A stretch of 64,000 bases of DNA from an uncultured virus (IMG/VR IMGVR_UViG_3300023054_000005) (Duplodnaviria; Heunggongvirae; Uroviricota; Caudoviricetes). The notes below the pieces were generated by a model that saw only the letters and a list, made by a program, of their open reading frames with translations, did not search any database and was not told the origin of the DNA. Shown in pieces: positions 36,988-49,891 of the stretch (the stretch's first letter is position 1; each line of letters opens with the position of its first letter). The stretch is from the IMG/VR virus record IMGVR_UViG_3300023054_000005; one strand, given 5' to 3'. Both the position numbers and the translations under genes were made by a program.

Positions 36988-36997
36988 ACCCCTAATA

Positions 36998-37131
36998 GGA
37001 TAATAAACAGTACTCATCACGCTCAGGGGATTAATCTTTACTTCCTTGAGCGTACCAGGATGAGTCTTTTACGTAAGGAAGGATTAAAACCCCTACTTAC
37101 AAAAGGTTAATTAGTAGTAACCGTTTTATCC
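36998..37131 (+). ncRNA. Candidate structured ncRNA (multi-stem junction)
   Basis: GGATAA/TTATCC closes three hairpins in an ORF-free gap. Confidence 0.4.
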
Positions 37132-37290
37132 GCCTACGCTAGCACATGGGCAACAGAGAGAAAAGATAATTAATTATTTAGGCTTCTTGAAGATAGCTGT
37201 GTAAACGTTACTACTTATTAATTCTTTTAAGGATGATATTTTTTTATTTAAATCCTTATACATCAACATTTTTTCTGAAACAATTACATA

Positions 37291-37325
37291 AAGACTTGCC
37301 TATGCGAGTCTTTTTTTGTATATTC
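37291..37325 (+). terminator. Terminator/promoter cassette, nearly identical to 48947-48980
   Basis: AAGACTTGC-(c/a)..-GCGAGTCTT plus T run ending in TATATT. Confidence 0.7.
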
Positions 37326-37353: not shown

Positions 37354-37494
37354 ATGGAATTTCAAGAAAAATTAAACAAAATTGAAGTAATTAGTAAAAC
37401 TATTTTAGAATTAAAATCATCTATTAAAACACCTCTAACAAAATTACGTATTCAAAAACTCCAACAAGAATTAGATAAAATTACTATGTCATAA
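37354..37494 (+). CDS. Small coiled-coil protein (46 aa), not in the ORF track
   Basis: MEFQEKLNKIEV...QQELDKITMS*, between two promoter motifs. Confidence 0.5.
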   Translation: MEFQEKLNKIEVISKTILELKSSIKTPLTKLRIQKLQQELDKITMS

Positions 37495-41215: not shown

Positions 41216-41538
41216 GTAAAATAAAACAAATAAAAATACCGGTTAATATTCTAAAAGAACAAGGTATAGAAACAGAATTTAATTACAAACTAGTTAGGGA
41301 AAGAGACGGGTTAACCAAAAATAGTAAAGACGTAAGATGGTTGGAATTTAATGAAAATGGCAAGGGTGTTAAAGCTATGCATACATTACCTGAAGTAGGT
41401 TTTACGTTAATAATGTCACCCTTTAATCAATTTTTTACTTGGCAAACCACTACCGTAACTGAAATCCTTGAGCAATCTGAGGGTTATGTGAAGTTTAGAA
41501 CTTCTAATAGTGTGTATACTCTATCAAAAACTATATAA
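41212..41538 (+). CDS. Hypothetical protein
   Basis: 108 aa (WQTT.VTEI, FRTSNSVY), ATGA-coupled. Confidence 0.6.
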   Translation: MSKIKQIKIPVNILKEQGIETEFNYKLVRERDGLTKNSKDVRWLEFNENGKGVKAMHTLPEVGFTLIMSPFNQFFTWQTTTVTEILEQSEGYVKFRTSNSVYTLSKTI

Positions 41539-41539
41539 C

Positions 41540-41728
41540 ATGGTAGTTTATAGGTATAGAAATAAAAATTACGAAATAGTAGTTGAAGATGAGGGTGAAT
41601 TCAACCAACAAAGAAAAGAAATAATATTACGTGACTTTATAGCATGTGAAAAATCAGGAGATTACATTACAATTAAAAACCGAATGACTAAAGGCATAAA
41701 ATGGGGTTGGTTAAAGTTAATAAATTAG
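41540..41728 (+). CDS. Hypothetical protein
   Basis: Track ORF 41510-41728; the ATG at 41540 right after the previous stop is the likelier start. Confidence 0.5.
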   Translation: MVVYRYRNKNYEIVVEDEGEFNQQRKEIILRDFIACEKSGDYITIKNRMTKGIKWGWLKLIN

Positions 41729-41825
41729 AAAAATTAAACCCATAAACTGAATATTCAATAAATTTGGTTTCCCATAATATCTTTCGTATATTCAGGTATA
41801 ATAACAATTAAAAACAATTAAGGTT

Positions 41826-42365
41826 ATGTATTATAAATTTAATCAAGAAACGATGTTATATGAAAAAACTAGTATAACAAGCAGATCCTTATTGGGGTTT
41901 GGGGCGGTATTAGGGTTAGTAACCATATTTGGTCTTACTTACAATAATAACAAAAAAACAGAAAATATATCCTTAGAAGATAGGCTTATTATAATACGAG
42001 AAGCAAATACTTTTTCTGAAGAAAAATTAAAAGAGAAAATATATAGTTTAAACTTTAAATTTCCCCATATTGTATTGGCACAAGCTAAACTCGAGTCCTC
42101 TAATTTCTCTTCCCACATATTTTTGGAAAATAATAATTTATTTGGGATGAAAGAAGCAAGATCAAGAGCTAATTTAGCAGTTGGAACTAAGAGATCACAT
42201 GCTCATTATAACAATTGGCAAGACTCGGTACTAGATTATGCCCTGTATTATTCAACTTATCTATATAAAATTAGAACAGAACAAGAATATTATAGTTATC
42301 TATCTCAATATTATGCGGAGGATCCCAACTATGTAAATGCGTTAAAAAAAATAATTAAAAAATAA
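41826..42365 (+). CDS. Membrane-anchored glucosaminidase (GH73-like)
   Basis: AQAKLES, NNLFGMK and YAEDPNY motifs; N-terminal hydrophobic helix. Confidence 0.8.
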   Translation: MYYKFNQETMLYEKTSITSRSLLGFGAVLGLVTIFGLTYNNNKKTENISLEDRLIIIREANTFSEEKLKEKIYSLNFKFPHIVLAQAKLESSNFSSHIFLENNNLFGMKEARSRANLAVGTKRSHAHYNNWQDSVLDYALYYSTYLYKIRTEQEYYSYLSQYYAEDPNYVNALKKIIKK

Positions 42366-42435
42366 AAGAAAAAGAAAAAAATTCCTTGGCGACTTAATAT
42401 CTTTTTCATATATTTATTATAGAATAAAAATAAAC

Positions 42436-42591
42436 ATGAAAACACTTCAAAACATATTTACAAATCTACATGCCTCGATGCAGGTCCTTAATATATGGAC
42501 GTTATCGTTATGTAGTGATGTGATTTGTGGCTTTACATTTAATAGCGAATATAAGCAACCGAGACATATTTCCGGGTACATTATGAGTTGA
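42436..42591 (+). CDS. Candidate attenuator leader peptide (51 aa, all 20 amino acids)
   Basis: MKTLQNIFTNLHASMQVLNIWTLSLCSDVICGFTFNSEYKQPRHISGYIMS*; promoter motif at 42386-42414; followed by a terminator. Confidence 0.6.
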   Translation: MKTLQNIFTNLHASMQVLNIWTLSLCSDVICGFTFNSEYKQPRHISGYIMS

Positions 42592-42617
42592 TAGTTTAAA
42601 ATACATATCATTTATAT

Positions 42618-42652
42618 AAAACCCGGATCTGAAAAGATTCGGGTTTTTTTTT
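42618..42652 (+). terminator. Intrinsic terminator upstream of the tRNA array
   Basis: ACCCGGATCT-gaaa-AGATTCGGGT followed by a T run. Confidence 0.85.
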
Positions 42653-42721
42653 AAAATTTATGCAAAAAAATTAGGTTACCCGGAGTAGATTTCGTATCTT
42701 CATGGGGTAGAAAGTAAAAAA

Positions 42722-42750
42722 GGTTCATTGACATATTGGATAAGATTAAA
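42722..42750 (+). promoter_or_regulatory. boxA-like antitermination leader (second copy at 46616-46645)
   Basis: GTTCATTGACATATTGGATAAGATTAAA and ATCATTGACATAATTGGATAAGATTAAA each lie just before the first tRNA of a sub-array. Confidence 0.6.
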
Positions 42751-42837
42751 GGAAGGTTGACAGAGTCTGGCTTATTGTGCTAGTCTTGAAAACTAGTGAT
42801 TGTAAAAGATCCGTGGGTTCGAATCCCACACCTTCTT
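42751..42837 (+). tRNA. tRNA-Ser(TGA)
   Basis: Anticodon arm CTAGT-cttgaaa-ACTAG, long variable arm, GGTTCGAATCC. Confidence 0.88.
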
Positions 42838-42925
42838 CAAAACTATCAATTCTGATTCGAACGCTGGCATAATGGTCCAGCTGATATGCTTAATTGAGGT
42901 AGTAAGAGCCCAACTCTTACATTAT

Positions 42926-42997
42926 TGGTCTGTGGTATAACGGTTATTACATTTGACTTTGACTCAATTAATGGGAGTTCGATTCTCTCCAGACCAA
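42926..42997 (+). tRNA. tRNA-Gln(TTG)
   Basis: Acceptor TGGTCTG/CAGACCA, loop ctttgac. Confidence 0.85.
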
Positions 42998-43064
42998 CAA
43001 TAATTTACAAAATAACCTGGCTAAAAGGCTTAGCTAAAATAACCAGGCTAAAAGTAGATTAATT

Positions 43065-43136
43065 CGGGTAGTATTCTCGAGGTGAGAAGCTCGCTTTGGA
43101 AGCGAGAGGCGGCAGGTTCGACTCCTGTCTACCCGA
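43065..43136 (+). tRNA. tRNA-Pro(TGG)
   Basis: Acceptor CGGGTAG/CTACCCG, arm CTCGC-tttggaa-GCGAG. Confidence 0.88.
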
Positions 43137-43332
43137 CAAAAACTATCAAAAGAAGGAATGATACGAGCCCGCAAAGTTCGAAAAGAGTCCGCAATAGTTT
43201 TAATAAAAGATTAAGCTTAATATCATAATAAGCTCTCTTAGCCAAAGGGGTAACTGTGAAACAGGTTTAAATGTAATGATATCAAAACATTTAAATGGAG
43301 GTTATTGATACACCAATCTTTTATTTACTTCT

Positions 43333-43404
43333 ATCCCTGTAGCAAACCGGTGTAGGCAACTGTCTTTTAAACAGTGGGGTTAGGTTCGACTCCTAACAGG
43401 GGTA
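43333..43404 (+). tRNA. tRNA-Lys(TTT)
   Basis: Arm ACTGT-cttttaa-ACAGT, T-arm TTAGGTTCGACTCCTAA. Confidence 0.85.
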
Positions 43405-43436
43405 CAAATTTGCAAGTTGAGGTTATTAATTTCCGG

Positions 43437-43501
43437 GGTTGTGTGGTGTAACGGTTAACATGGCGGTCCGCAAGATATAGGTTCGAATCCTATCATAACT
43501 A
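43437..43501 (+). ncRNA. tRNA-like RNA with truncated anticodon arm
   Basis: Acceptor, D- and T-arms present; anticodon arm reduced to GCG-gtc-CGC. Confidence 0.6.
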
Positions 43502-43514
43502 AAAAATTAAACTT

Positions 43515-43585
43515 ACCTCTTTGACGTAATGGTAGCGTATTTGTTTTACATGCAAAGTGCGATGGTTCGATTCCATCAGGAGGTA
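43515..43585 (+). tRNA. tRNA-Val(TAC)
   Basis: Arm TTTGT-tttacat-GCAAA, acceptor ACCTCTT/AGGAGGT. Confidence 0.85.
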
Positions 43586-43684
43586 CAAAAATAGTTGGGT
43601 GAAGAGAATCATTACTACAATAGTGATCTAAACACAGACTACTCTATAGAGGTTAGGAATTGTAGTTCCAATTAATTATAGTTT

Positions 43685-43756
43685 TTGGCGTTAGTGGAAT
43701 GGTGACCACGCCCGGCAATGAGCCGGGAGAAGCAAGTTCGATTCTTGTACGTTAAC
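43685..43756 (+). tRNA. Atypical tRNA, apparent anticodon ATG (His-like, A33)
   Basis: Full cloverleaf; arm CCCGG-caatgag-CCGGG; C discriminator. Confidence 0.55.
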
Positions 43757-43831
43757 TAATTCTAGTTTTAAACGTTAGAAATAAAACAAGGTGTAAAAGT
43801 CTTGGTAAAGATTATTTTAAGATTAGAAAAT

Positions 43832-43912
43832 GGGGGTTGAAAGTCGTTCGGATACGACAGCGGGACTGTAAATTCCGTCCGAAAGGGAGTGGTTCGAGTC
43901 CACCATCGCCCA
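43832..43912 (+). tRNA. tRNA-Tyr(GTA)
   Basis: Arm CGGGA-ctgtaaa-TTCCG, variable hairpin; acceptor stem imperfect. Confidence 0.75.
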
Positions 43913-43999
43913 CGATAGTGAAGATGTACCTTTATACAACCTAGGACAATGTATAAAGGGTGTGGTTAAATTACATCGGGTCCCACCACATTCTTATTT

Positions 44000-44075
44000 G
44001 GTACTGTAGCTCAAACGGTAGAGCACTAGACTGAAAATCTAGGTGTAGTTGGTTCGATACCAATCAGTACCACCA
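44000..44075 (+). tRNA. tRNA-Phe(GAA)
   Basis: Arm CTAGA-ctgaaaa-TCTAG, encoded CCA. Confidence 0.9.
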
Positions 44076-44080
44076 TTACA

Positions 44081-44161
44081 TTACGATGCAGGTGCGTTGA
44101 CTGTCTCATGAGCAGTAGCGGCAGATATGTCCAATGAAGGTTCGAGTCCTTTAATCGTAAC
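44081..44161 (+). ncRNA. Atypical tRNA-like RNA, CAT anticodon, reduced D-arm
   Basis: Acceptor TTACGAT/ATCGTAA, arm ACTGT-ctcatga-GCAGT, only ~12 nt in the D region, long variable region. Confidence 0.55.
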
Positions 44162-44168
44162 TAAAAAT

Positions 44169-44242
44169 TCCTCAGTAGCTCATCTGGTTAGAGCGGCGCA
44201 CTGTTAATGCGTAGGTAGTAGGTTCGAACCCTACCTGAGGAG
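44169..44242 (+). tRNA. tRNA-Asn(GTT)
   Basis: Acceptor TCCTCAG/CTGAGGA, loop ctgttaa. Confidence 0.9.
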
Positions 44243-44248
44243 CAATTC

Positions 44249-44321
44249 CGGAGTGTAGCTCAATTGGTAGAGCATTGTCCTGATACGACAAAGGTAGTAG
44301 GATCGTAACCTACCACTTCGA
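44249..44321 (+). tRNA. tRNA-Ile(GAT)
   Basis: Arm TTGTC-ctgatac-GACAA. Confidence 0.85.
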
Positions 44322-44326
44322 CAAAA

Positions 44327-44412
44327 GGAAGATAAACTATGATGGTGATTAGGGTATCCTGCTAAGATAATCGTGCTGTAAAAGGCATTCGGTTCGATTC
44401 CGATTTCTTCCT
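44327..44412 (+). tRNA. tRNA-Ser(GCT)
   Basis: Loop ctgctaa, long variable arm, T-arm TCGGTTCGATTCCGA. Confidence 0.82.
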
Positions 44413-44418
44413 CAAAAC

Positions 44419-44490
44419 ATCAATATAGCTCAGTGGTAGAGCGGTTCTTTCATATGGAACAGGTCGATGGTTCAATCCTATCTATTGATA
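44419..44490 (+). tRNA. tRNA with CAT anticodon (Met or Ile2)
   Basis: Arm GTTCT-ttcatat-GGAAC, acceptor ATCAATA/TATTGAT. Confidence 0.78.
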
Positions 44491-44591
44491 CTATTTAAAA
44501 CCACTCGGGTTAAAGGATAATTTAGTCACCTGCTTCTGCAAAGATAAAACTTTAGACTAACAAGTAAGGAAAGTGGGAGCCTTACAAATAT

Positions 44592-44665
44592 GGTGTTTGT
44601 AGCTCAATCGGAAGAGCGTTCGGTTGTGATCCGAAGGGTAGTGGGATCGAAACCCACCTTACACC
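44592..44665 (+). tRNA. tRNA-His(GTG)
   Basis: Arm TTCGG-ttgtgat-CCGAA; G-1 and C73; two mismatches in the acceptor stem. Confidence 0.8.
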
Positions 44666-44764
44666 CCTATTGACGCCCAAAGGGTGATCGAATTGGTCAG
44701 AGATGAAAATTCTTGCAAAGACATTACCTAAAGATGTCCTGCTAACCTACGGGGTTGGCTTTAT

Positions 44765-44844
44765 GCCCGTGTGATGAAATTGGAAAACATGGTCGTCTTA
44801 AACGCGATTGCTTCGGCTTGTAGGTTCGAATCCTATCACGGGTA
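44765..44844 (+). tRNA. tRNA-Leu(TAA)
   Basis: Loop cttaaac, variable hairpin GC-ttcg-GC. Confidence 0.85.
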
Positions 44845-44866
44845 CAATAAGGAAAAACCTCCAAAT

Positions 44867-44939
44867 ATTTCCGTAGCATAAATGGCAATGCCCTCGAATA
44901 CGAATCGAGAGATTGAGAGTTCGAATCTCTCCGGGAATT
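44867..44939 (+). tRNA. tRNA-Arg(ACG)
   Basis: Arm CTCGA-atacgaa-TCGAG. Confidence 0.85.
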
Positions 44940-44946
44940 CATTAAT

Positions 44947-45019
44947 GCCCTTGTAGTTTAACTGAATAAAACAGTAGGCTTCTATCCTTCCAATCCCAGT
45001 TTGAATCTGGGCAGGGGTT
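44947..45019 (+). tRNA. tRNA-Arg(TCT)
   Basis: Loop cttctat, acceptor GCCCTTG/CAGGGGT; T-loop variant TTTGAAT. Confidence 0.75.
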
Positions 45020-45089
45020 CAAAATAGAAAAACAGGATCCCCAATCTGGACAGCTTCGGCAGGATTGAATCTGAACAGTTTTTCTATAT

Positions 45090-45158
45090 GCGTCATAGGT
45101 TATGGTAACCAAACGGATTCCAACCCCGTAGGACAGAGTTCGATTCTTTGATGGCGTG
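45090..45158 (+). tRNA. tRNA-Trp(CCA)
   Basis: Acceptor GCGTCAT/ATGGCGT; loop ttccaac above an ACGG/CCGT stem. Confidence 0.75.
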
Positions 45159-45232
45159 CAAAATTAAATAATTTAAAAATGAAAAAAAAATTCGATGCTC
45201 TTTAGGTAAATTAACCTAAAAACAGAGCAAAC

Positions 45233-45412
45233 ATGTTAAAAAAAGTAAAAAAATTTCAACAAACAACAACCAATTCTCGTACGTACAAAATGTACCACTC
45301 CGGACAAGTATTAGGGTGTCCATTATGTGGTCCCAATAGTGGATGTAATGGTAGGAATAAACGTAAAGAGATAAATTGGAAAACGTTTAGAAACACACAA
45401 TATAAACCATAG
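45233..45412 (+). CDS. Small basic Cys-containing protein (59 aa), not in the ORF track
   Basis: MLKKVKK...GCPLCGPNSGCNGRNKRKEINWKTFRNTQYKP*; preceded by an 8-codon uORF and a hairpin. Confidence 0.6.
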   Translation: MLKKVKKFQQTTTNSRTYKMYHSGQVLGCPLCGPNSGCNGRNKRKEINWKTFRNTQYKP

Positions 45413-45422
45413 TTATTTAATC

Positions 45423-45932
45423 ATGAAAAACCGTTATGACAAAACCTTAGTAATTGACACTAGTTATATTGCTAGGAGTATTATTACTACAGAAAGGGCA
45501 TTCGTAATCTCATATAAGGGAAATGCTGATGTAGTAACGGAATACCCAGAAACATTTGGTGTAGTAAACCCAGAATTAACAATCTTTAAACCCTCTATTA
45601 TTAGAGTACACACTTATGTGAAGATGAATTTTCATAAAGTACCTCTAACACGTGAGAATATATTCAAAAGAGATGGGTATGAGTGTGTGTATTGTGGTTG
45701 TGAAAACCGCAAGACTCTAACGTTAGATCACGTTATACCTCAATCTAAAGGTGGGCCTAATAAATGGGATAATTTAGTTACTGCTTGTAAAAGATGTAAC
45801 AATGAAAAAGCGGATTTAACTTTAAAGGAATATGGTAAACCAATACCAAAACCCCAAAGGCCGCATTATTTGATGTTATTAAAAAAGACAACATTTATCC
45901 CGGATGAATGGAAACCATATTTAGGTATGTAA
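45423..45932 (+). CDS. HNH endonuclease inside the tRNA array
   Basis: RDGYECVYCG, TLDHVIP.S.GG...W.NLV.AC..CN..K. Confidence 0.9.
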   Translation: MKNRYDKTLVIDTSYIARSIITTERAFVISYKGNADVVTEYPETFGVVNPELTIFKPSIIRVHTYVKMNFHKVPLTRENIFKRDGYECVYCGCENRKTLTLDHVIPQSKGGPNKWDNLVTACKRCNNEKADLTLKEYGKPIPKPQRPHYLMLLKKTTFIPDEWKPYLGM

Positions 45933-45935
45933 AAA

Positions 45936-46008
45936 GAGTGGGATGTTCATGGTTGGGCAGTTGGTTTGCAAAACCAATTTTTAACGGGTTCGATTCCTGT
46001 CTCACTCT
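45936..46008 (+). tRNA. tRNA-Cys(GCA)
   Basis: Arm TTGGT-ttgcaaa-ACCAA; T discriminator. Confidence 0.82.
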
Positions 46009-46036
46009 CAAAAGCAATTAAACAGTAATTGCAAAA

Positions 46037-46374
46037 ATATTAGGATACGTGGGGTATGTTTCGTATCTTCACGTGTTCGTAAGGTTCGAACATTAAAAAC
46101 AATAAAGGTTATGAGCGTAGATTTAAGAAATTGTAAAAAAGGTGATATTTTAATCAGTTCACACGGTGCTAAGTTAATGTATTTGAGACCAACAACTGAT
46201 ACTGAATATCTAGATCATGTTGTAGGTTATTTAGATAAAGGATTAGGTCAAGGAACAAGAACACATGATGGGTTTGTATTTCTAAAAAATAGAATACCAG
46301 AAACTGATCATGATATTGTAAAAATAATTAAAGAATAATTAGGATACGTGGGGTATGTTTCGTATATTCACGTA
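46037..46374 (+). repeat. Near-identical ~36-nt promoter cassette repeated (46039-46074 and 46338-46374)
   Basis: ATTAGGATACGTGGGGTATGTTTCGTAT(C/A)TTCACGT occurs twice. Confidence 0.85.
46111..46338 (+). CDS. Hypothetical protein
   Basis: 75-aa ORF between the repeated promoter cassettes. Confidence 0.6.
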   Translation: MSVDLRNCKKGDILISSHGAKLMYLRPTTDTEYLDHVVGYLDKGLGQGTRTHDGFVFLKNRIPETDHDIVKIIKE

Positions 46375-46403
46375 TAAGTAATAAATATAAAAACCGAGAA
46401 GTT

Positions 46404-46604
46404 ATGTCATCAAAGAGTAATGGAGTTTCACATAGTATGCTATTATCATCAAAAGATAGAAGAAGAACAGTTTATTCAAGATTATCAGATCAATTAAAAT
46501 CTGGAACAAAAACTTGTAAGGAAACAAAAAAACAAATTCCCTTAACTGATAAGAATATAATTCGTATCGAAAGCGAATTAAAAACATTAAAACTTAGGTT
46601 TTAA
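46404..46604 (+). CDS. Small basic hypothetical protein
   Basis: 66-aa ORF behind the second cassette. Confidence 0.55.
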   Translation: MSSKSNGVSHSMLLSSKDRRRTVYSRLSDQLKSGTKTCKETKKQIPLTDKNIIRIESELKTLKLRF

Positions 46605-46646
46605 GATTAATAAAAGATCATTGACATAATTGGATAAGATTAAATT

Positions 46647-46728
46647 GCGTTTGTGTTGGAATTGGTAGACATGCTAGATTTAGAATCTAGTGCCTTAAGG
46701 TGTGAGAGTTCGAATCTCTCCAAACGTA
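46647..46728 (+). tRNA. tRNA-Leu(TAG)
   Basis: Arm CTAGA-tttagaa-TCTAG, variable arm. Confidence 0.88.
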
Positions 46729-46922
46729 CAAAAAACTTCTCGAGTAGCATCTACGACTTATTACTCTAGATGTGAAGTGGTGGGAACTTTATACCTAGAA
46801 GGTTGCATATCAAGAACATATAAGCATTAGTCCTTACGCTGGACTTGAGATATGAGCGGTTAGATTCCGAAGTATTAACAGATTTAAAAGGATAAGCTAG
46901 TTACTGTTAGTGCAAAAAATAT

Positions 46923-47025
46923 AGCTGTGAGATCATTGGTTGATAGCACCTCTCCAAGGTTAAGTTTAACGATAAGTTCACTTAGTATTGTAAAGCCGGA
47001 TTAGGTTCAAATCCTAACATAGCTA
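46923..47025 (+). ncRNA. Expanded tRNA-like RNA (~103 nt)
   Basis: Acceptor AGCTGTG/CATAGCT, T-arm TTAGG-ttcaaat-CCTAA, oversized middle. Confidence 0.55.
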
Positions 47026-47037
47026 CAAAATTAAAAT

Positions 47038-47189
47038 AGTCCTATATGTAGTAGTAGGTCGCCCCTACTCTTACTAGTGGGGTAACGTTACGGCTTTTGG
47101 TTTAACACTTCTTATACTAGTTTGAAGAGAAAGTTAAAGCATTAGAGTAAGTAACTTATCAAAGGTTGGTTCGATTCCAACTAGGACTA
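47038..47189 (+). ncRNA. Expanded tRNA-like RNA (~152 nt)
   Basis: Perfect acceptor AGTCCTA/TAGGACT, T-arm GTTGG-ttcgatt-CCAAC, ~120-nt middle. Confidence 0.6.
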
Positions 47190-47613
47190 CAAAATCTCTT
47201 TAAAGCCCTGGCCTAACTGTGGAGTTGGTATGCAGCCAAAACTACGGGACCGTAAGGATAAAGAGCTTCTGATTGTTATTAAAGTAAGCTAAGGATTTGA
47301 AACCAAGGTATAAACAACCAAGGAAGATATGCCGGCCCTGCTGATAAGAGAAAACTTATTTAATAACTACGCTAAATAATTAATACGCGTTAAAAGTTTA
47401 GATACTAGTCCATACAGAAGTATTGGGTAGAATTAGAAGTAAAATATAAAGTTAGACGTTCAAGGGTGAACTGAAAAGGGATTCAAACAACCATTCTAAC
47501 TTATAATATTAAGAGAGTAAGTGAAGCTAGGACAAGCTGGAATAAGATAAAGGTTTATCTCCAGTCCCAGATATTTCTAGAAACCTCGAAAGACCCGAAC
47601 CTCTCTTATATTT

Positions 47614-47685
47614 GCCTCCAAAGCATAAATGGTAATGTACCCGGTTTGTACCCGGATTAACAGGGTTCGATTCCTTGTGGAGGCT
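47614..47685 (+). tRNA. tRNA-Thr(TGT)
   Basis: Acceptor GCCTCCA/TGGAGGC, loop tttgtac. Confidence 0.87.
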
Positions 47686-47752
47686 CAAAAGTAATTCAAC
47701 CTCGCCTATTGAGCAGAACCTCATGTGGGGTGGTCAATGTTTTACTTTTAAT

Positions 47753-47824
47753 GCGAGTGTAGTATAATGGCTATTATATCTGGCTTCCAACCAGAGGACG
47801 AGAGTTCGATTCTCTCTATTCGCT
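47753..47824 (+). tRNA. tRNA-Gly(TCC)
   Basis: Arm TCTGG-cttccaa-CCAGA, GCG start. Confidence 0.88.
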
Positions 47825-48003
47825 CAAAACGGCCTGATTCCGATGCATAGGATAGGGAACGAAGCACACGGATGACGGGTCTGTTTAATATTAAACCTCA
47901 ATATCTTTCGAGTATTGGATTGTTAAACAGATGGGCGCGGATGCCATTCGAATCGTTTTGTCGAATTAGTTGGTAACTCTAAGGTGTTCTAAAAGTTACA
48001 ATT

Positions 48004-48085
48004 GGAAGAGTGGACAATGGTTGTTAAGCTGTCTTGAAAACAGTCGGGTGTAAAAGCTTTGTAGGTTCGAATCCTATCTCTTCCG
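48004..48085 (+). tRNA. tRNA-Ser(TGA), second gene
   Basis: Arm GCTGT-cttgaaa-ACAGT, long variable arm, G discriminator. Confidence 0.82.
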
Positions 48086-48091
48086 CTGAAT

Positions 48092-48163
48092 GTTCCTGTC
48101 GACAACTGGCTAAGTCACTACCCTTTCACGGTAGAGTAGAGGGATCGATACCCTCCAGGAATA
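48092..48163 (+). tRNA. tRNA-Glu(TTC)
   Basis: Arm CTACC-ctttcac-GGTAG. Confidence 0.87.
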
Positions 48164-48336
48164 CAAATTAAAAATTCTTTGCTTGAAGATAAACAATAGT
48201 ATTCAGACTTGTAAAATACCTCAAGTAATATGTAAGCTGTATCAGCAGTTGTGTTTATTGTAGAGGTTATCTACTCTCTGAAACAAAGGAGCGTAATTCC
48301 ATAACTGAAATTTGGACAAAGAGTTTTTAATTAATT

Positions 48337-48408
48337 GGGGTTGTAGCTAAATTGGCTTAGCAGTACCTTTGCAAGGTAAAGTATGTGGGTTCGAGTCCCA
48401 TCTACTCC
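48337..48408 (+). tRNA. tRNA-Ala(TGC)
   Basis: GGGG start with G3-U70, loop tttgcaa. Confidence 0.82.
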
Positions 48409-48625
48409 ACAATAAGTAAGAGATACTTACAGACATCCATGGAGTCTATAAACAAAATGGGGGTACTAGAGTGGACATCCTTAACGCCGCTCTCTGAGGA
48501 ATAAAGACGGGTAATAGAGTCTCCCAGTAATTTGACTTTGTTTCATGTGGTAAGACACTTATGAGTTTGTTTGAAAGGAAATAAAACCGTTAAAATCTAG
48601 CTTAGTAATCTCACTAAGCAAAACC

Positions 48626-48700
48626 GGTCTATTTGTGAACTGGCTATCATGCTACCCTGTCACGGTAGAGTAGAGGGATCGAAACCCTCATAGACCGCCA
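48626..48700 (+). tRNA. tRNA-Asp(GTC)
   Basis: Arm CTACC-ctgtcac-GGTAG, ends GCCA. Confidence 0.88.
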
Positions 48701-48703
48701 AAT

Positions 48704-48774
48704 TGCGGTTTGGTGTAATTGGCAGCATGTAGGGCTCATAACCCTGAGGCGAGGTTCGAGTCCTCAATCCGCTT
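48704..48774 (+). tRNA. Initiator-like tRNA-fMet(CAT)
   Basis: GGG/CCC anticodon stem around ctcataa; mismatched 1-72 pair. Confidence 0.78.
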
Positions 48775-48836
48775 CTAAATAGTTTTACAGGTCGTTCTGT
48801 CCTTGAGTTCTATCCTAAAAACTCTAAAAAAGGCAA

Positions 48837-48909
48837 GGTCCGTTATCTCAGCTGGTAGAGAAGTTCGCTCATAACGAAAAGGTCATAGGTTCGATTCCTA
48901 TACGGACCA
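48837..48909 (+). tRNA. tRNA with CAT anticodon (Ile2 or Met)
   Basis: Acceptor GGTCCGT/ACGGACC (C4 and C5, as in TilS substrates), loop ctcataa. Confidence 0.85.
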
Positions 48910-48992
48910 CAATAATTTTATCCAATATCTCAAATAAATGTATAAGAAGACTTGCCAATGCGAGTCTTCTTTTGTATATTAACACATAAATT

Positions 48993-49157
48993 ATGAACAA
49001 CCAAAAAAACCCAGATGACCACCTTCACCAAAGAATTAACTTCACTAAGTCATGTATCCGTATCTTAGGTTACATTTCTTTATGTTATAGTTTGGATTTC
49101 GCAGTAGGTTTACTTATATTAAGTGAAGGAATAGGAATAGTAGAAGAATTAGTATAA
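48993..49157 (+). CDS. Small membrane protein (54 aa), not in the ORF track
   Basis: MNNQKNPDDHLHQRINFTKSCIRILG...LSEGIGIVEELV*, behind a promoter cassette. Confidence 0.55.
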   Translation: MNNQKNPDDHLHQRINFTKSCIRILGYISLCYSLDFAVGLLILSEGIGIVEELV

Positions 49158-49182
49158 ACCAAAATAAATTAAATAACTAAAA

Positions 49183-49434
49183 ATGAGAGAAATATTGTAC
49201 TTCACAGGGACCTGGTGTGGACCATGTAAACAGTTAGCACCCCGAATGGAAAAATTACAATCCGAAGGAAAAATCAACTTCAAAAAAGTTGATGTAGACC
49301 AAAATACCGAGCTTACGGCGAAATACGCAATACGAAACATCCCCACTCTAGTCTTACTAGAAAATGGTGAAGCAAAAGATAGATTATTAGGGTTAAATAC
49401 AGAACAAGCAATTCAAAACTTCTATAATGGGTAA
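49183..49434 (+). CDS. Thioredoxin
   Basis: WCGPCK active site, VDVD and IPT motifs. Confidence 0.92.
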   Translation: MREILYFTGTWCGPCKQLAPRMEKLQSEGKINFKKVDVDQNTELTAKYAIRNIPTLVLLENGEAKDRLLGLNTEQAIQNFYNG

Positions 49435-49891
49435 ATTTCAATCAAGTAAAGTATTCGACGGATTCAGCACTGTATTCCGTCAATGGAGAGCAGAGGGTAC
49501 AATGTGTAAATTCATACACGGTTATGGAATTTCATTCAAAGTTTACTTTGAGGGTGAATTAGACGATAGGAATTGGGTTTGGGATTTCGGTGGAATGAAA
49601 CGCGCATCTACTTTAATTGATGGTAAACAACCAAAAGCTTGGATGGATTATACTTTCGATCATACCTTGATTGTAGCAGAAGATGATCCTGAAGTAGAAG
49701 CATTTAAACAAATGGGAGAAGCAGGAGTTGCTCAGGTAAGAGTAATACCTTCTACAGGAGCAGAAAAATTCGCAGAGTATATCTTTGGTAAATTAAATGT
49801 ATTTGTTAAAACAGAAACGTTTAATAGAGTTAGGGTTACTAAGGTGAAGTTCATGGAACATGGAAAAAATGCTGCCTATTATTGCGAATAA
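49427..49891 (+). CDS. queD: 6-carboxy-5,6,7,8-tetrahydropterin synthase
   Basis: CKFIHGY, WVWDFG, FDH and AE motifs; adjacent to queE and folE. Confidence 0.85.
   Translation: MGKFQSSKVFDGFSTVFRQWRAEGTMCKFIHGYGISFKVYFEGELDDRNWVWDFGGMKRASTLIDGKQPKAWMDYTFDHTLIVAEDDPEVEAFKQMGEAGVAQVRVIPSTGAEKFAEYIFGKLNVFVKTETFNRVRVTKVKFMEHGKNAAYYCE

Follow-up and report, generated by a model that had tools for sequence, protein, structure and literature searches.

The 64,000-nucleotide (nt) stretch of DNA analysed here as a whole, and called the window below, comes from an uncultured virus (IMG/VR record IMGVR_UViG_3300023054_000005) and carries a long array of transfer RNA (tRNA) genes. The segment 42366-42750, between an endolysin-like gene and the first tRNA of this array, raises the question of what stands at the head of the array and how it could act on the tRNA genes behind it. 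An initial annotation of the letters had read it as an attenuator, in which a short leader open reading frame (ORF) with all 20 amino acids samples every tRNA. Judged from the window alone, this attenuator reading was a rather improbable one. It is now supported by a unit, a reading frame, an all-20 composition and a covariation that are kept in related phages, so that a ribosome-mediated attenuator at the head of the array, with a leader sampling the whole amino-acid set, is probable on the sequence comparison. The ORF with its 20 amino acids and 33 codons, the strong terminator and the exact complementarity of TCCGGGT to the terminator 5' arm ACCCGGA (42621-42627) were all found as the initial annotation had claimed. 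The parts of the proposed switch are the following:

42436..42591, + strand: leader ORF of 51 codons with all 20 amino acids and 33 distinct codons; stop codon at 42589-42591
42571..42577, + strand: TCCGGGT, putative 5' strand of the antiterminator, 12-18 nt before the stop codon
42582..42616, + strand: spacer hairpin, which holds the stop codon 42589-42591 and is enclosed by the antiterminator helix in minimum-free-energy folds
42618..42652, + strand: terminator, with a stem at 42618-42647 and then nine T in a run to 42652

According to the proposed mechanism, RNA polymerase would start at a first promoter, P1 (~42410-42420), and transcribe the 51-codon leader ORF. In the growing RNA, TCCGGGT (42571-42577) would pair with ACCCGGA (42621-27), the antiterminator being the first to form. 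A ribosome reaching the stop codon (42589-91) smoothly would cover this strand and the spacer hairpin, so that the terminator folds and the transcript ends at 42652. With a ribosome held earlier in the ORF, or with no ribosome, the strand would remain free, the antiterminator would hold and polymerase would read into the tRNA genes, adding to the output of a second promoter, P2 (42671-42702). With at least one codon per amino acid in the leader, tRNA transcription could rise whenever any charged tRNA runs short. Codons that occur only once lie, in the core clade, without exception upstream of the last ~5 codons, and a ribosome stalled on them should therefore leave the antiterminator strand free, to judge from usual ribosome footprints. 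Four points of this mechanism are inferred: that ribosomes translate the ORF in vivo, that they are coupled to the polymerase, which way the switch works and what its natural signal is (starvation or an anticodon nuclease). A more specific version, in which the leader is a sensor of the whole tRNA pool and the loss of any single host tRNA would open the terminator and raise the phage replacement tRNAs, is put forward only tentatively; starvation, host shut-off and anticodon-nuclease defence are equally tentative as the sources of such a loss.

The family of related leaders came to light through G002, a related virus record of 153 kb with an endolysin 53% identical, in the segment that precedes its tRNA array. 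This segment has a promoter motif and a 49-codon ORF whose last codons agree with those of the window; behind the ORF come identical terminator arms, another promoter motif, the conserved box and tRNA-Ser. A scan with the terminator pattern returned 36 viral loci, 26 of them distinct, and the homologous ORFs (22 distinct) end 30-37 nt ahead of the terminator; in L199 and L206/L212 the terminator hairpin occurs in an unrelated setting, and L207 is truncated. With the peptide alignment A3, 238 proteins were retrieved at E <= 0.001 among 346 candidates, with names that are almost all "hypothetical protein". None of the 22 leader-peptide members matched Pfam at E <= 1, and no Pfam domain was found among the 238 proteins. 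A scan with A3 gave 49 viral loci which, with the window, L194 and L183 added, correspond to 42 distinct units. Throughout these 42 viral units the order is promoter, ORF of 44-51 codons, terminator, usually a second promoter, conserved box and tRNA-Ser. A tRNA on the same strand lies 46-287 nt behind the terminator in 39/42 units (Ser-UGA in 37, Gln in 2), and the other three have an ORF or an uncalled tRNA-like element in this place. The short ORF that the initial annotation proposed to look for upstream of the tRNA arrays of relatives is hence conserved. The large phage records G001, G002 and G003 hold one unit each; no unit was found in G004, a provirus with 4 tRNAs, and the core unit was not found in named phage records by blastn or by tblastn at E <= 1. 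An annotated 51-codon coding sequence (CDS) located directly before the tRNA-Ser of Flavobacterium phage vB_FspM_immuto_2-6A was rejected as a homologue, as it bears no likeness to the leader. This CDS (L001 2825-2980, gp238) stands behind a promoter motif, uses 18 kinds of amino acids and has no terminator after it.

Folding of the alternatives, which had been suggested as a check, gave both structures. The terminator stem comprises 13 pairs, one of them G-U and 5 of them G-C, and amounts to -17.7 kcal/mol. In the nascent transcript (42420-42634) the TCCGGGT:ACCCGGA helix had a probability of 0.84-1.00, with -18.5 kcal/mol against the -17.7 of the terminator; in the full-length RNA the terminator won, with a probability of 0.97. 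When the upstream 198 nt were shuffled with dinucleotides preserved, 3 of 400 shuffles competed as well with the terminator, and no upstream competitor of this kind exists for the window's two other clean terminators. In the folded full-length RNA a weak hairpin of 5 pairs takes part of the antiterminator strand; a helix at 42506-42547 leaves the strand out. Concerning the trp/his-type geometry that the initial annotation had regarded as established, the pairing between the ORF end and the terminator arm stands, whereas tandem codons are lacking and a transcript that is not translated folds by default into the antiterminator. The behaviour of the window was shared by 22 relatives folded as nascent RNA: the core of the 5' arm pairs upstream with a probability of ~1 in 22/22, and its partner lies 2-19 nt before the stop codon in 17/22. 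The upstream helix excludes the terminator and its 5' strand lies where a ribosome at the stop codon would cover it, as is required of the putative antiterminator. Besides, the cost of losing the terminator was below the shuffle mean in 22/22 units and in the lowest 5% in 14/22. The motif ACCCGGA occurs 5 times in the window versus 2.73 expected, with 3 copies within 114 bases, the third at 42678-42684. It was considered as a protein-binding site, a reading that was dropped since in relatives the motif and its RNA partners change jointly.

This joint change is illustrated by an alignment of 41 sequences, in which 98.5% of the terminator cells are paired and 4 of the 10 pairs have changed on both sides, in 23 cells; none of 500 shuffles reached the score. 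Units with the arms CCCGGATC / GATTCGGG have the ORF end CCGGG, or GATCTGGG just before the stop codon. The arms CTCGGATC / GATTCGAG (n=11) go with CCGAG in 6 units, with a longer complementary stretch in 1 and with G-U-compatible ends in 4, and the three units with the arms CCCAAATC / GATTTGGG have GATTTGGG as their ORF end. Where the ORF end is CCGAGGTA, the arm is CTCGG, or TACCCGG pairing with one bulge. Cognate duplexes of ORF end and arm averaged -10.65 kcal/mol, compared with -9.39 +/- 0.18 after permutation (0/5000 as low) and -8.49 with arms of other types. The ORF end, the 5' arm and the 3' arm therefore covary three ways, which is the outcome that a search for covarying antiterminator/terminator pairs had been expected to give if the attenuator was real.

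Signals for transcription and translation have to be read according to the host. The nearest named record is vB_FspM_immuto_2-6A, with ~70% identity over parts, and, judged by its sequence, the window is from a phage of Flavobacterium-type hosts. The relevant parts of PMC6847099 and PMC9723704 describe for such hosts -33/-7 promoter elements (TTTG / TAnnTTTG at -12 to -5) and genes without a Shine-Dalgarno sequence, in which A is favoured at -3, -6, -12 and -13; the position and consensus of the -7 box used here are taken from the same sources. Hence, promoters and starts were read by the -33/-7 and upstream-A rules, which gave two promoters around the leader:

42386..42416, + strand: P1, with TTG at 42386-42388, 20 nt and the TATATTTA box at 42409-42416, in the Bacteroidota -33/-7 layout
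42671..42702, + strand: P2, with TTAGG at 42671-42675, the TATCTTCA box at 42695-42702 and the third ACCCGGA copy (42678-42684) inside

The motif TTTCRTATMTTYA, with at most 1 mismatch, has 19 matches in the window versus 3.52 expected. All 16 matches on the + strand are positioned 24-92 nt ahead of a gene start, and they include 42404-42416, before the leader ORF, and 42690-42702, before tRNA-Ser, both without mismatch. In relatives, a motif of the same type precedes the leader ORF and other genes. The promoter first placed at 42386-42414 scored 9/12 in a sigma-70 scan and fits the phage-group motif TTTCRTATMTTYA. Sigma-70 matches are not enriched (54 found versus 56.2 +/- 8.2 in shuffles), and these calls were dropped, the host group using other elements.

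The initial annotation had cautioned that a second promoter after the terminator, carrying an ACCCGGA copy, might let the leader modulate rather than gate expression. This caution proved justified, P2 being kept in most units. P2-like motifs lie behind the terminator in at least 29/42 units by a loose pattern that misses the window's own P2; the type TTG-N20-TATATTTA is conserved in most units, and only L258 was seen without P2. Therefore, the leader would modulate or add to the transcription of the array and would not gate it; with P2 present, the attenuator is not the sole transcription route into the tRNA genes. In the window, P2 is part of a 62-nt repeat with copies at 42652-42713, 46021-46082 and 46320-46381, of which the latter two each precede an ORF. 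The repeat holds an internal inverted repeat around the -7 box, with arms that differ between copies (TACCC/GGGTA versus ACGTG/CACGT), which hints at a hairpin or an operator. Two natural variants were noticed: L258 has no promoter-like motif between terminator and box, and L243 has lost the 3' arm of the terminator.

The next question is whether the ORF is read by ribosomes, and what is conserved in it. No internal stop codon occurs in its frame in 41/41 aligned sequences; the +1 and +2 frames have on average 3.1 and 4.8 stops and are open in 0/41. All 12 gap blocks of the nucleotide alignment within the ORF are multiples of 3 (3, 6, 6, 3, 6, 3, 15, 3, 18, 15, 3, 6). The ATG of the window is preceded by A at -3, -6, -12 and -13, positions at which A is favourable according to the part of PMC6847099 that deals with starts. 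The kept frame and the favourable start context argue for a short translated leader ORF. Its divergence is flat over the codon positions (0.216/0.204/0.233 among 19 core sequences), and the ratio of nonsynonymous to synonymous polymorphism (pN/pS) is 0.72 over 741 pairs. In the 15 loci compared with a neighbouring gene, residues conserved in at least 90% of sequences show synonymous variation in 2/14 columns of the leader and in 17/21 of the gene. The conserved parts are fixed as nucleotides or codons, including the rare TCG, CCG and GGC, and the variable parts change amino acids freely. One of the conserved parts forms a helix:

42506-42511 with 42542-42547, + strand: conserved helix in the ORF, from RNAalifold on the alignment A4 (columns 93-98 with 165-170)

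Its pairs are mostly invariant, with a compensatory change at one pair in 2 sequences, and it may be a pause or timing hairpin.

Blocks kept as nucleotides, one of them helical, are what a structured RNA would also show. An independent small gene, in the form of a ~230-nt small RNA or of a microprotein of 44-51 residues, with the array driven only by P2, is one way to account for them; the pairing of the ORF end with the terminator arm would then be the RNA's own fold or a tuning of its 3' end. Such a gene would be consistent with P1 and P2 belonging to the same promoter family with a strong terminator between them, with other promoter-led small ORFs of this phage (for instance 37354-37494), with the preference of the full-length RNA for the terminator (0.97) and with the partly kept T at the second codon position of hydrophobic residues. 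For trpL of Sinorhizobium, leader peptides and attenuator RNAs with an action in trans have been reported (PMC6614838, PMC7298713). However, a pure small RNA leaves the frame open in 41/41 sequences and the 12/12 in-frame gap blocks unexplained, and an ordinary protein does not explain the frozen synonymous sites, a pN/pS of 0.72-0.83 or the relocation of His, Trp, Tyr and Pro codons described below. Neither accounts for the joint change of the arm, its 3' partner and the ORF end, nor for the fixed place before tRNA-Ser in 37/42 units, and the microprotein finds no match in Pfam (0/22 members) and a sole one in PHROGs at E = 0.024. We therefore regard a small gene as an unlikely account of the locus. 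The pN/pS values themselves were not retained as proof against a protein role, 0.64 and 0.83 being too close.

The attenuator reading also predicts something about the peptide, namely that a leader sampling every amino acid should keep all of them. Among the listed proteins, 113/120 contain all 20 amino acids and 7 contain 19. Once N-terminal extensions had been trimmed and the peptides of the loci added, the set comprised 151 distinct peptides (44-51 residues); 142 of these have the full 20 amino acids and the other 9 have 19. Shuffling of residues within alignment columns gave 112.5 +/- 3.2 such peptides with a maximum of 123, and 0/2000 shuffles reached 142. This excess arises because codons that occur only once and are lost from their canonical place relocate elsewhere in the ORF. 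The frequency of a second copy, in peptides without and with the canonical one, was as follows:

His: 16/19 where the canonical copy is absent, 3/132 where it is present
Trp: 3/3 absent, 0/148 present
Tyr: 4/4 absent, 6/147 present
Pro: 2/2 absent, 5/149 present
Arg: 3/4 absent, 19/147 present
Glu: 2/4 absent, 54/147 present
Cys: 0/2 absent, 1/149 present

The relocated His takes at least 4 different positions in sequences that are otherwise conserved, suggesting that it moved several times independently; three sequences have no His at all. In the window and in L194, which are divergent, His, Arg, Pro and Tyr stand elsewhere, and yet no amino acid is missing. The all-20 composition thus appears to be under selection, and the claim that the leader samples every amino acid gains from the way in which this property is kept, by relocation of single codons.

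Several observations weigh against a leader that reports each tRNA to the array, or against parts of this reading. Where Trp took the place of the Cys codon (L257, L183 and the G003 unit), Cys was lost and not replaced; 9/151 peptides hold only 19 amino acids; and 103/151 have no Met beyond the start, so that the elongator tRNA-Met is often unsampled. The 20 amino acids of the core clade all lie within nucleotide-conserved blocks, at least one of which forms an RNA helix, so that the all-20 property may in part have been carried along by constraints on the RNA; such constraints leave the relocations unexplained. Neither the shuffles nor the permutations take into account how the sequences are related. 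In the window, two codons, the sole one for Arg and the second one for His, are no more than ~10 nt away from the antiterminator strand, which a ribosome stalled on them would probably cover. Taken singly, 8/22 units do no better than 5% of their own shuffles. The antiterminator of the majority clade has only 5 G-C pairs, against a terminator more stable by 10-12.7 kcal/mol; antitermination in this clade, if it occurs, must therefore be kinetic. The pN/pS gap is small (0.83 for the leader versus 0.64 for the neighbouring gene in the same 15 loci) and T is kept at the second codon position in some hydrophobic positions, so that the peptide itself may have a role. Finally, P2, a promoter of the same family, sits between terminator and array in the window and most relatives.

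Some of these observations are also those expected of an attenuator coupled to translation that responds to how fast or how available ribosomes are overall, instead of to the supply of each charged tRNA. Its stimuli would be host shut-off, ribosome-targeting toxins or the timing of early infection, and the all-20 composition would be a by-product of the conserved RNA blocks in which the core-clade amino acids lie. The alternative helices and the position of the stop codon support control by a ribosome and leave the relevant stall unspecified; the antiterminator is the first fold without a ribosome, and the leader has no tandem codon runs. General attenuators that respond to stalled ribosomes are known, for antibiotic leaders and mycobacterial whiB7, from the parts of PMC10274678, PMC9226507 and PMC10314930 that describe them. 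However, the relocation of lost codons (His 16/19 versus 3/132, Trp 3/3 versus 0/148, Tyr 4/4, Pro 2/2) is predicted by selection on composition and not by a rate sensor; column shuffles never reach 142/151, and the window and L194, although divergent, have a complete set in which four amino acids (His, Arg, Pro, Tyr) sit elsewhere. A sensor of this general kind is accordingly given little weight beside the attenuator with a leader sampling the whole amino-acid set.

How little of this could be read from the window alone is illustrated by its codon statistics. Of 12,973 gene windows of 51 codons, drawn from 45 long ORFs, 1.5% contain all 20 amino acids; among 5,000 random sequences without stops and with matched composition the share is 3.7%. 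At least 33 distinct codons occur in 2.1% of the gene windows and in 43% of the random sequences. The diversity of the ORF is therefore only mildly unusual in the window alone: of the two features stressed by the initial annotation, the full set of amino acids is infrequent and the 33 codons are ordinary for random sequence. The codon log-odds of the leader, -0.24 per codon, are below those of every 51-codon gene window and equal to those of its own antisense ORF, with a G+C content at codon positions 1/2/3 of 0.31/0.35/0.37, compared with 0.42/0.36/0.21 in genes. The many G/C-ending codons pointed out earlier thus look, in the window alone, like non-coding composition; in the relatives they are kept at the nucleotide level, partly via RNA helices. 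Array tRNAs can read 38/51 codons of the leader, as in the average gene. With simple wobble, the leader codons cover 20/22 anticodon species of the array (gene-window mean 16.1, with 3.9% reaching 20), and no tandem codon runs of the kind expected of regulatory codons occur in it.

Searches from the window itself were similarly uninformative. As sole query, its peptide matched only itself among 5.8 billion proteins; no match better than E = 0.3 was found in phage records, and the only one in PHROGs, phrog_28564 at E = 0.024, is not significant. A tblastx search of the region against the loci gathered before the family was opened gave no match. The endolysin was tried as an anchor for diverged junctions and abandoned: among 79 viral and 80 metagenome loci only L005, L006, L011 and L095 carry the array, and these four copies are identical to the window locus and offer no variation. 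The next relatives of the endolysin (57-63% identity) have no tRNA behind it. Patterns of window repeats, used as search probes, matched the same phage only and were given up. A chance open frame with chance complementarity in the 3' untranslated region of the endolysin gene, ahead of an ordinary terminator, would suit an ORF without coding signature in the window alone (-0.24 per codon, same as antisense), a codon number typical of random sequence (43%) and a peptide matching only itself among 5.8 billion proteins, but is extremely improbable with unit, frame, composition and pairing kept in 42 distinct units and 238 proteins on many contigs.

The surroundings of the leader comprise the following features:

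41826-42365: endolysin-like gene, PHROGs endolysin families
42723..42750, + strand: conserved 27-nt box, directly before tRNA-Ser and present in the relatives inspected; described earlier as boxA-like
42751..48910, + strand: tRNA array, starting with tRNA-Ser(UGA); 25 tRNAs by ARAGORN and 23 at or above the gathering score by Rfam

The initial annotation had spoken of a complete tRNA set. The 25 tRNAs called by ARAGORN serve 19 amino acids, and the set is complete only when the candidates Cys(gca) and Ser(gct), obtained at a relaxed threshold, are counted. The array has a tRNA-His with anticodon ATG beside the normal GTG one, as well as low-score candidates seen at a relaxed threshold or by Rfam, namely Ser(gct), Cys(gca) and one with an odd anticodon loop; the coordinates concerned are 43685-43756, 43437-43501, 44330-44413 and 45932-46009. 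T-arm-like stretches that are not called lie at 47000-47035 and 47168-47194. They are similar to a tRNA-like element of ~130 nt with two T-arm-like motifs, uncalled by ARAGORN, that stands between P2 and the box in L216, L225, L226, L234, L235 and L243. An HNH endonuclease ORF is found within the array of the window (45423-45932). In L188, L211 and L239, an ORF is inserted right behind the leader terminator, with an N-terminus that may resemble a GIY-YIG homing endonuclease.

A 21-nt part of the box (42728-42748) recurs before tRNA-Leu (46620-46644), and its reverse complement is found with 19/21 identical positions after the last tRNA (48913-48933). The inverted 21-nt boxes bracket the 6.2-kb array and could represent leader-trailer pairing or the ends of a cassette. 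The leader-trailer inverted repeat was rejected as a part of the unit, since it was not found at the array ends of G002 and G003 at up to 3 mismatches. Elsewhere in the window, a G+C-richer stretch of ~300 nt without ORF (36988-37313) follows a QueC-like gene and is closed by a clean terminator at 37290-37313, directly after which a promoter motif and a 46-codon ORF are located. This stretch may be a structured RNA; no Rfam match at E <= 5 was found for it.

The unit stands before the tRNA genes of a large family of phages with Flavobacterium-type hosts. If the attenuator reading is true, it would be the first case of tRNA genes regulated by decoding itself, and phage tRNA arrays would gain a regulated, on-demand role. 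This would bear on why phages carry tRNAs, whether for codon usage, for host shut-off or for escape from tRNA-cutting defences, and would provide a compact natural sensor of translation capacity. If the sensor of the whole pool were also true, the virus would bring its own feedback loop between decoding and tRNA supply, which would serve as a counter-defence. The in-frame gaps, the frozen synonymous sites, the codon relocation and the three-way covariation define clear mutants.

Leader-peptide attenuators are classically those of amino-acid operons, such as trpL, hisL, pheL, leuL and the multivalent thrL and ilvL. Like trpL- and hisL-type leaders, the phage unit has a short 5' ORF followed by an intrinsic terminator whose 5' arm can be captured by an alternative helix, the position of the ribosome presumably deciding between the two, with the stop codon sited so that a finishing ribosome would cover the antiterminator strand. 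Unlike them, it has no run of codons for a single amino acid and presents one or few codons for each of the 20, apparently kept by selection. Its leader is long, with 44-51 codons; its targets are phage tRNA genes and not biosynthetic genes; and it has a second promoter after the terminator. No clear 1:2 anti-antiterminator emerged from the phage leader folds, so that an untranslated leader would be expected to read through. Because of the lack of tandem regulatory codons and the different targets, the unit was not filed in any named leader family. Leader attenuation by pheL and in flavobacterial amino-acid operons is reported in the relevant parts of PMC3082878 and PMC9723704, respectively.

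The leaders of vmlR, msrD and whiB7 resemble the unit in another respect. In them, as would be the case here, slowed translation of the upstream ORF opens a terminator, and the answer is given to translation stress and not to one metabolite. They differ in being short and in having specific stall sites (a drug-bound ribosome or particular codons); the parts of their descriptions available to us report none with all 20 amino acids or with control of tRNA genes, and no sequence likeness to the phage leader was found. T-box leaders of Gram-positive bacteria also report tRNA charging through terminator/antiterminator alternatives. However, a T-box binds one uncharged tRNA directly and involves no translation, whereas the phage leader keeps an ORF and has no specifier or T-box sequence. 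The T-box model (RF00230) had no match at E <= 1 in 41500-49500 and none at the gathering score in the whole window. The Thr operon leader model (RF00506) reached 23.2 bits against a threshold of 55 (E = 0.69) at 42591-42653, which is the terminator hairpin only. In Rfam 15 no family covers the unit, the matches in the region being far below threshold and limited to the hairpin.

The arrangement of promoters, in turn, recalls the operons of ribosomal RNA (rRNA) and tRNA. Regulation of these operons acts at initiation, through ppGpp/DksA. The tandem P1/P2 promoters before bacterial rRNA-tRNA operons, as presented in the pertinent part of PMC5179076, likewise precede stable-RNA genes, one being regulated and one more constant; unlike there, the transcripts from the phage P1 pass through a leader ORF and a terminator. 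In the literature searched, mostly as listings and abstracts, no report was found of a leader with all amino acids or of attenuation before phage tRNA genes. To our knowledge, every known leader-peptide attenuator reports one or few amino acids and controls biosynthetic genes. The class of mechanism proposed for this locus, the leader-peptide attenuator, is known; an all-20 leader with tRNA genes as its targets would be new.

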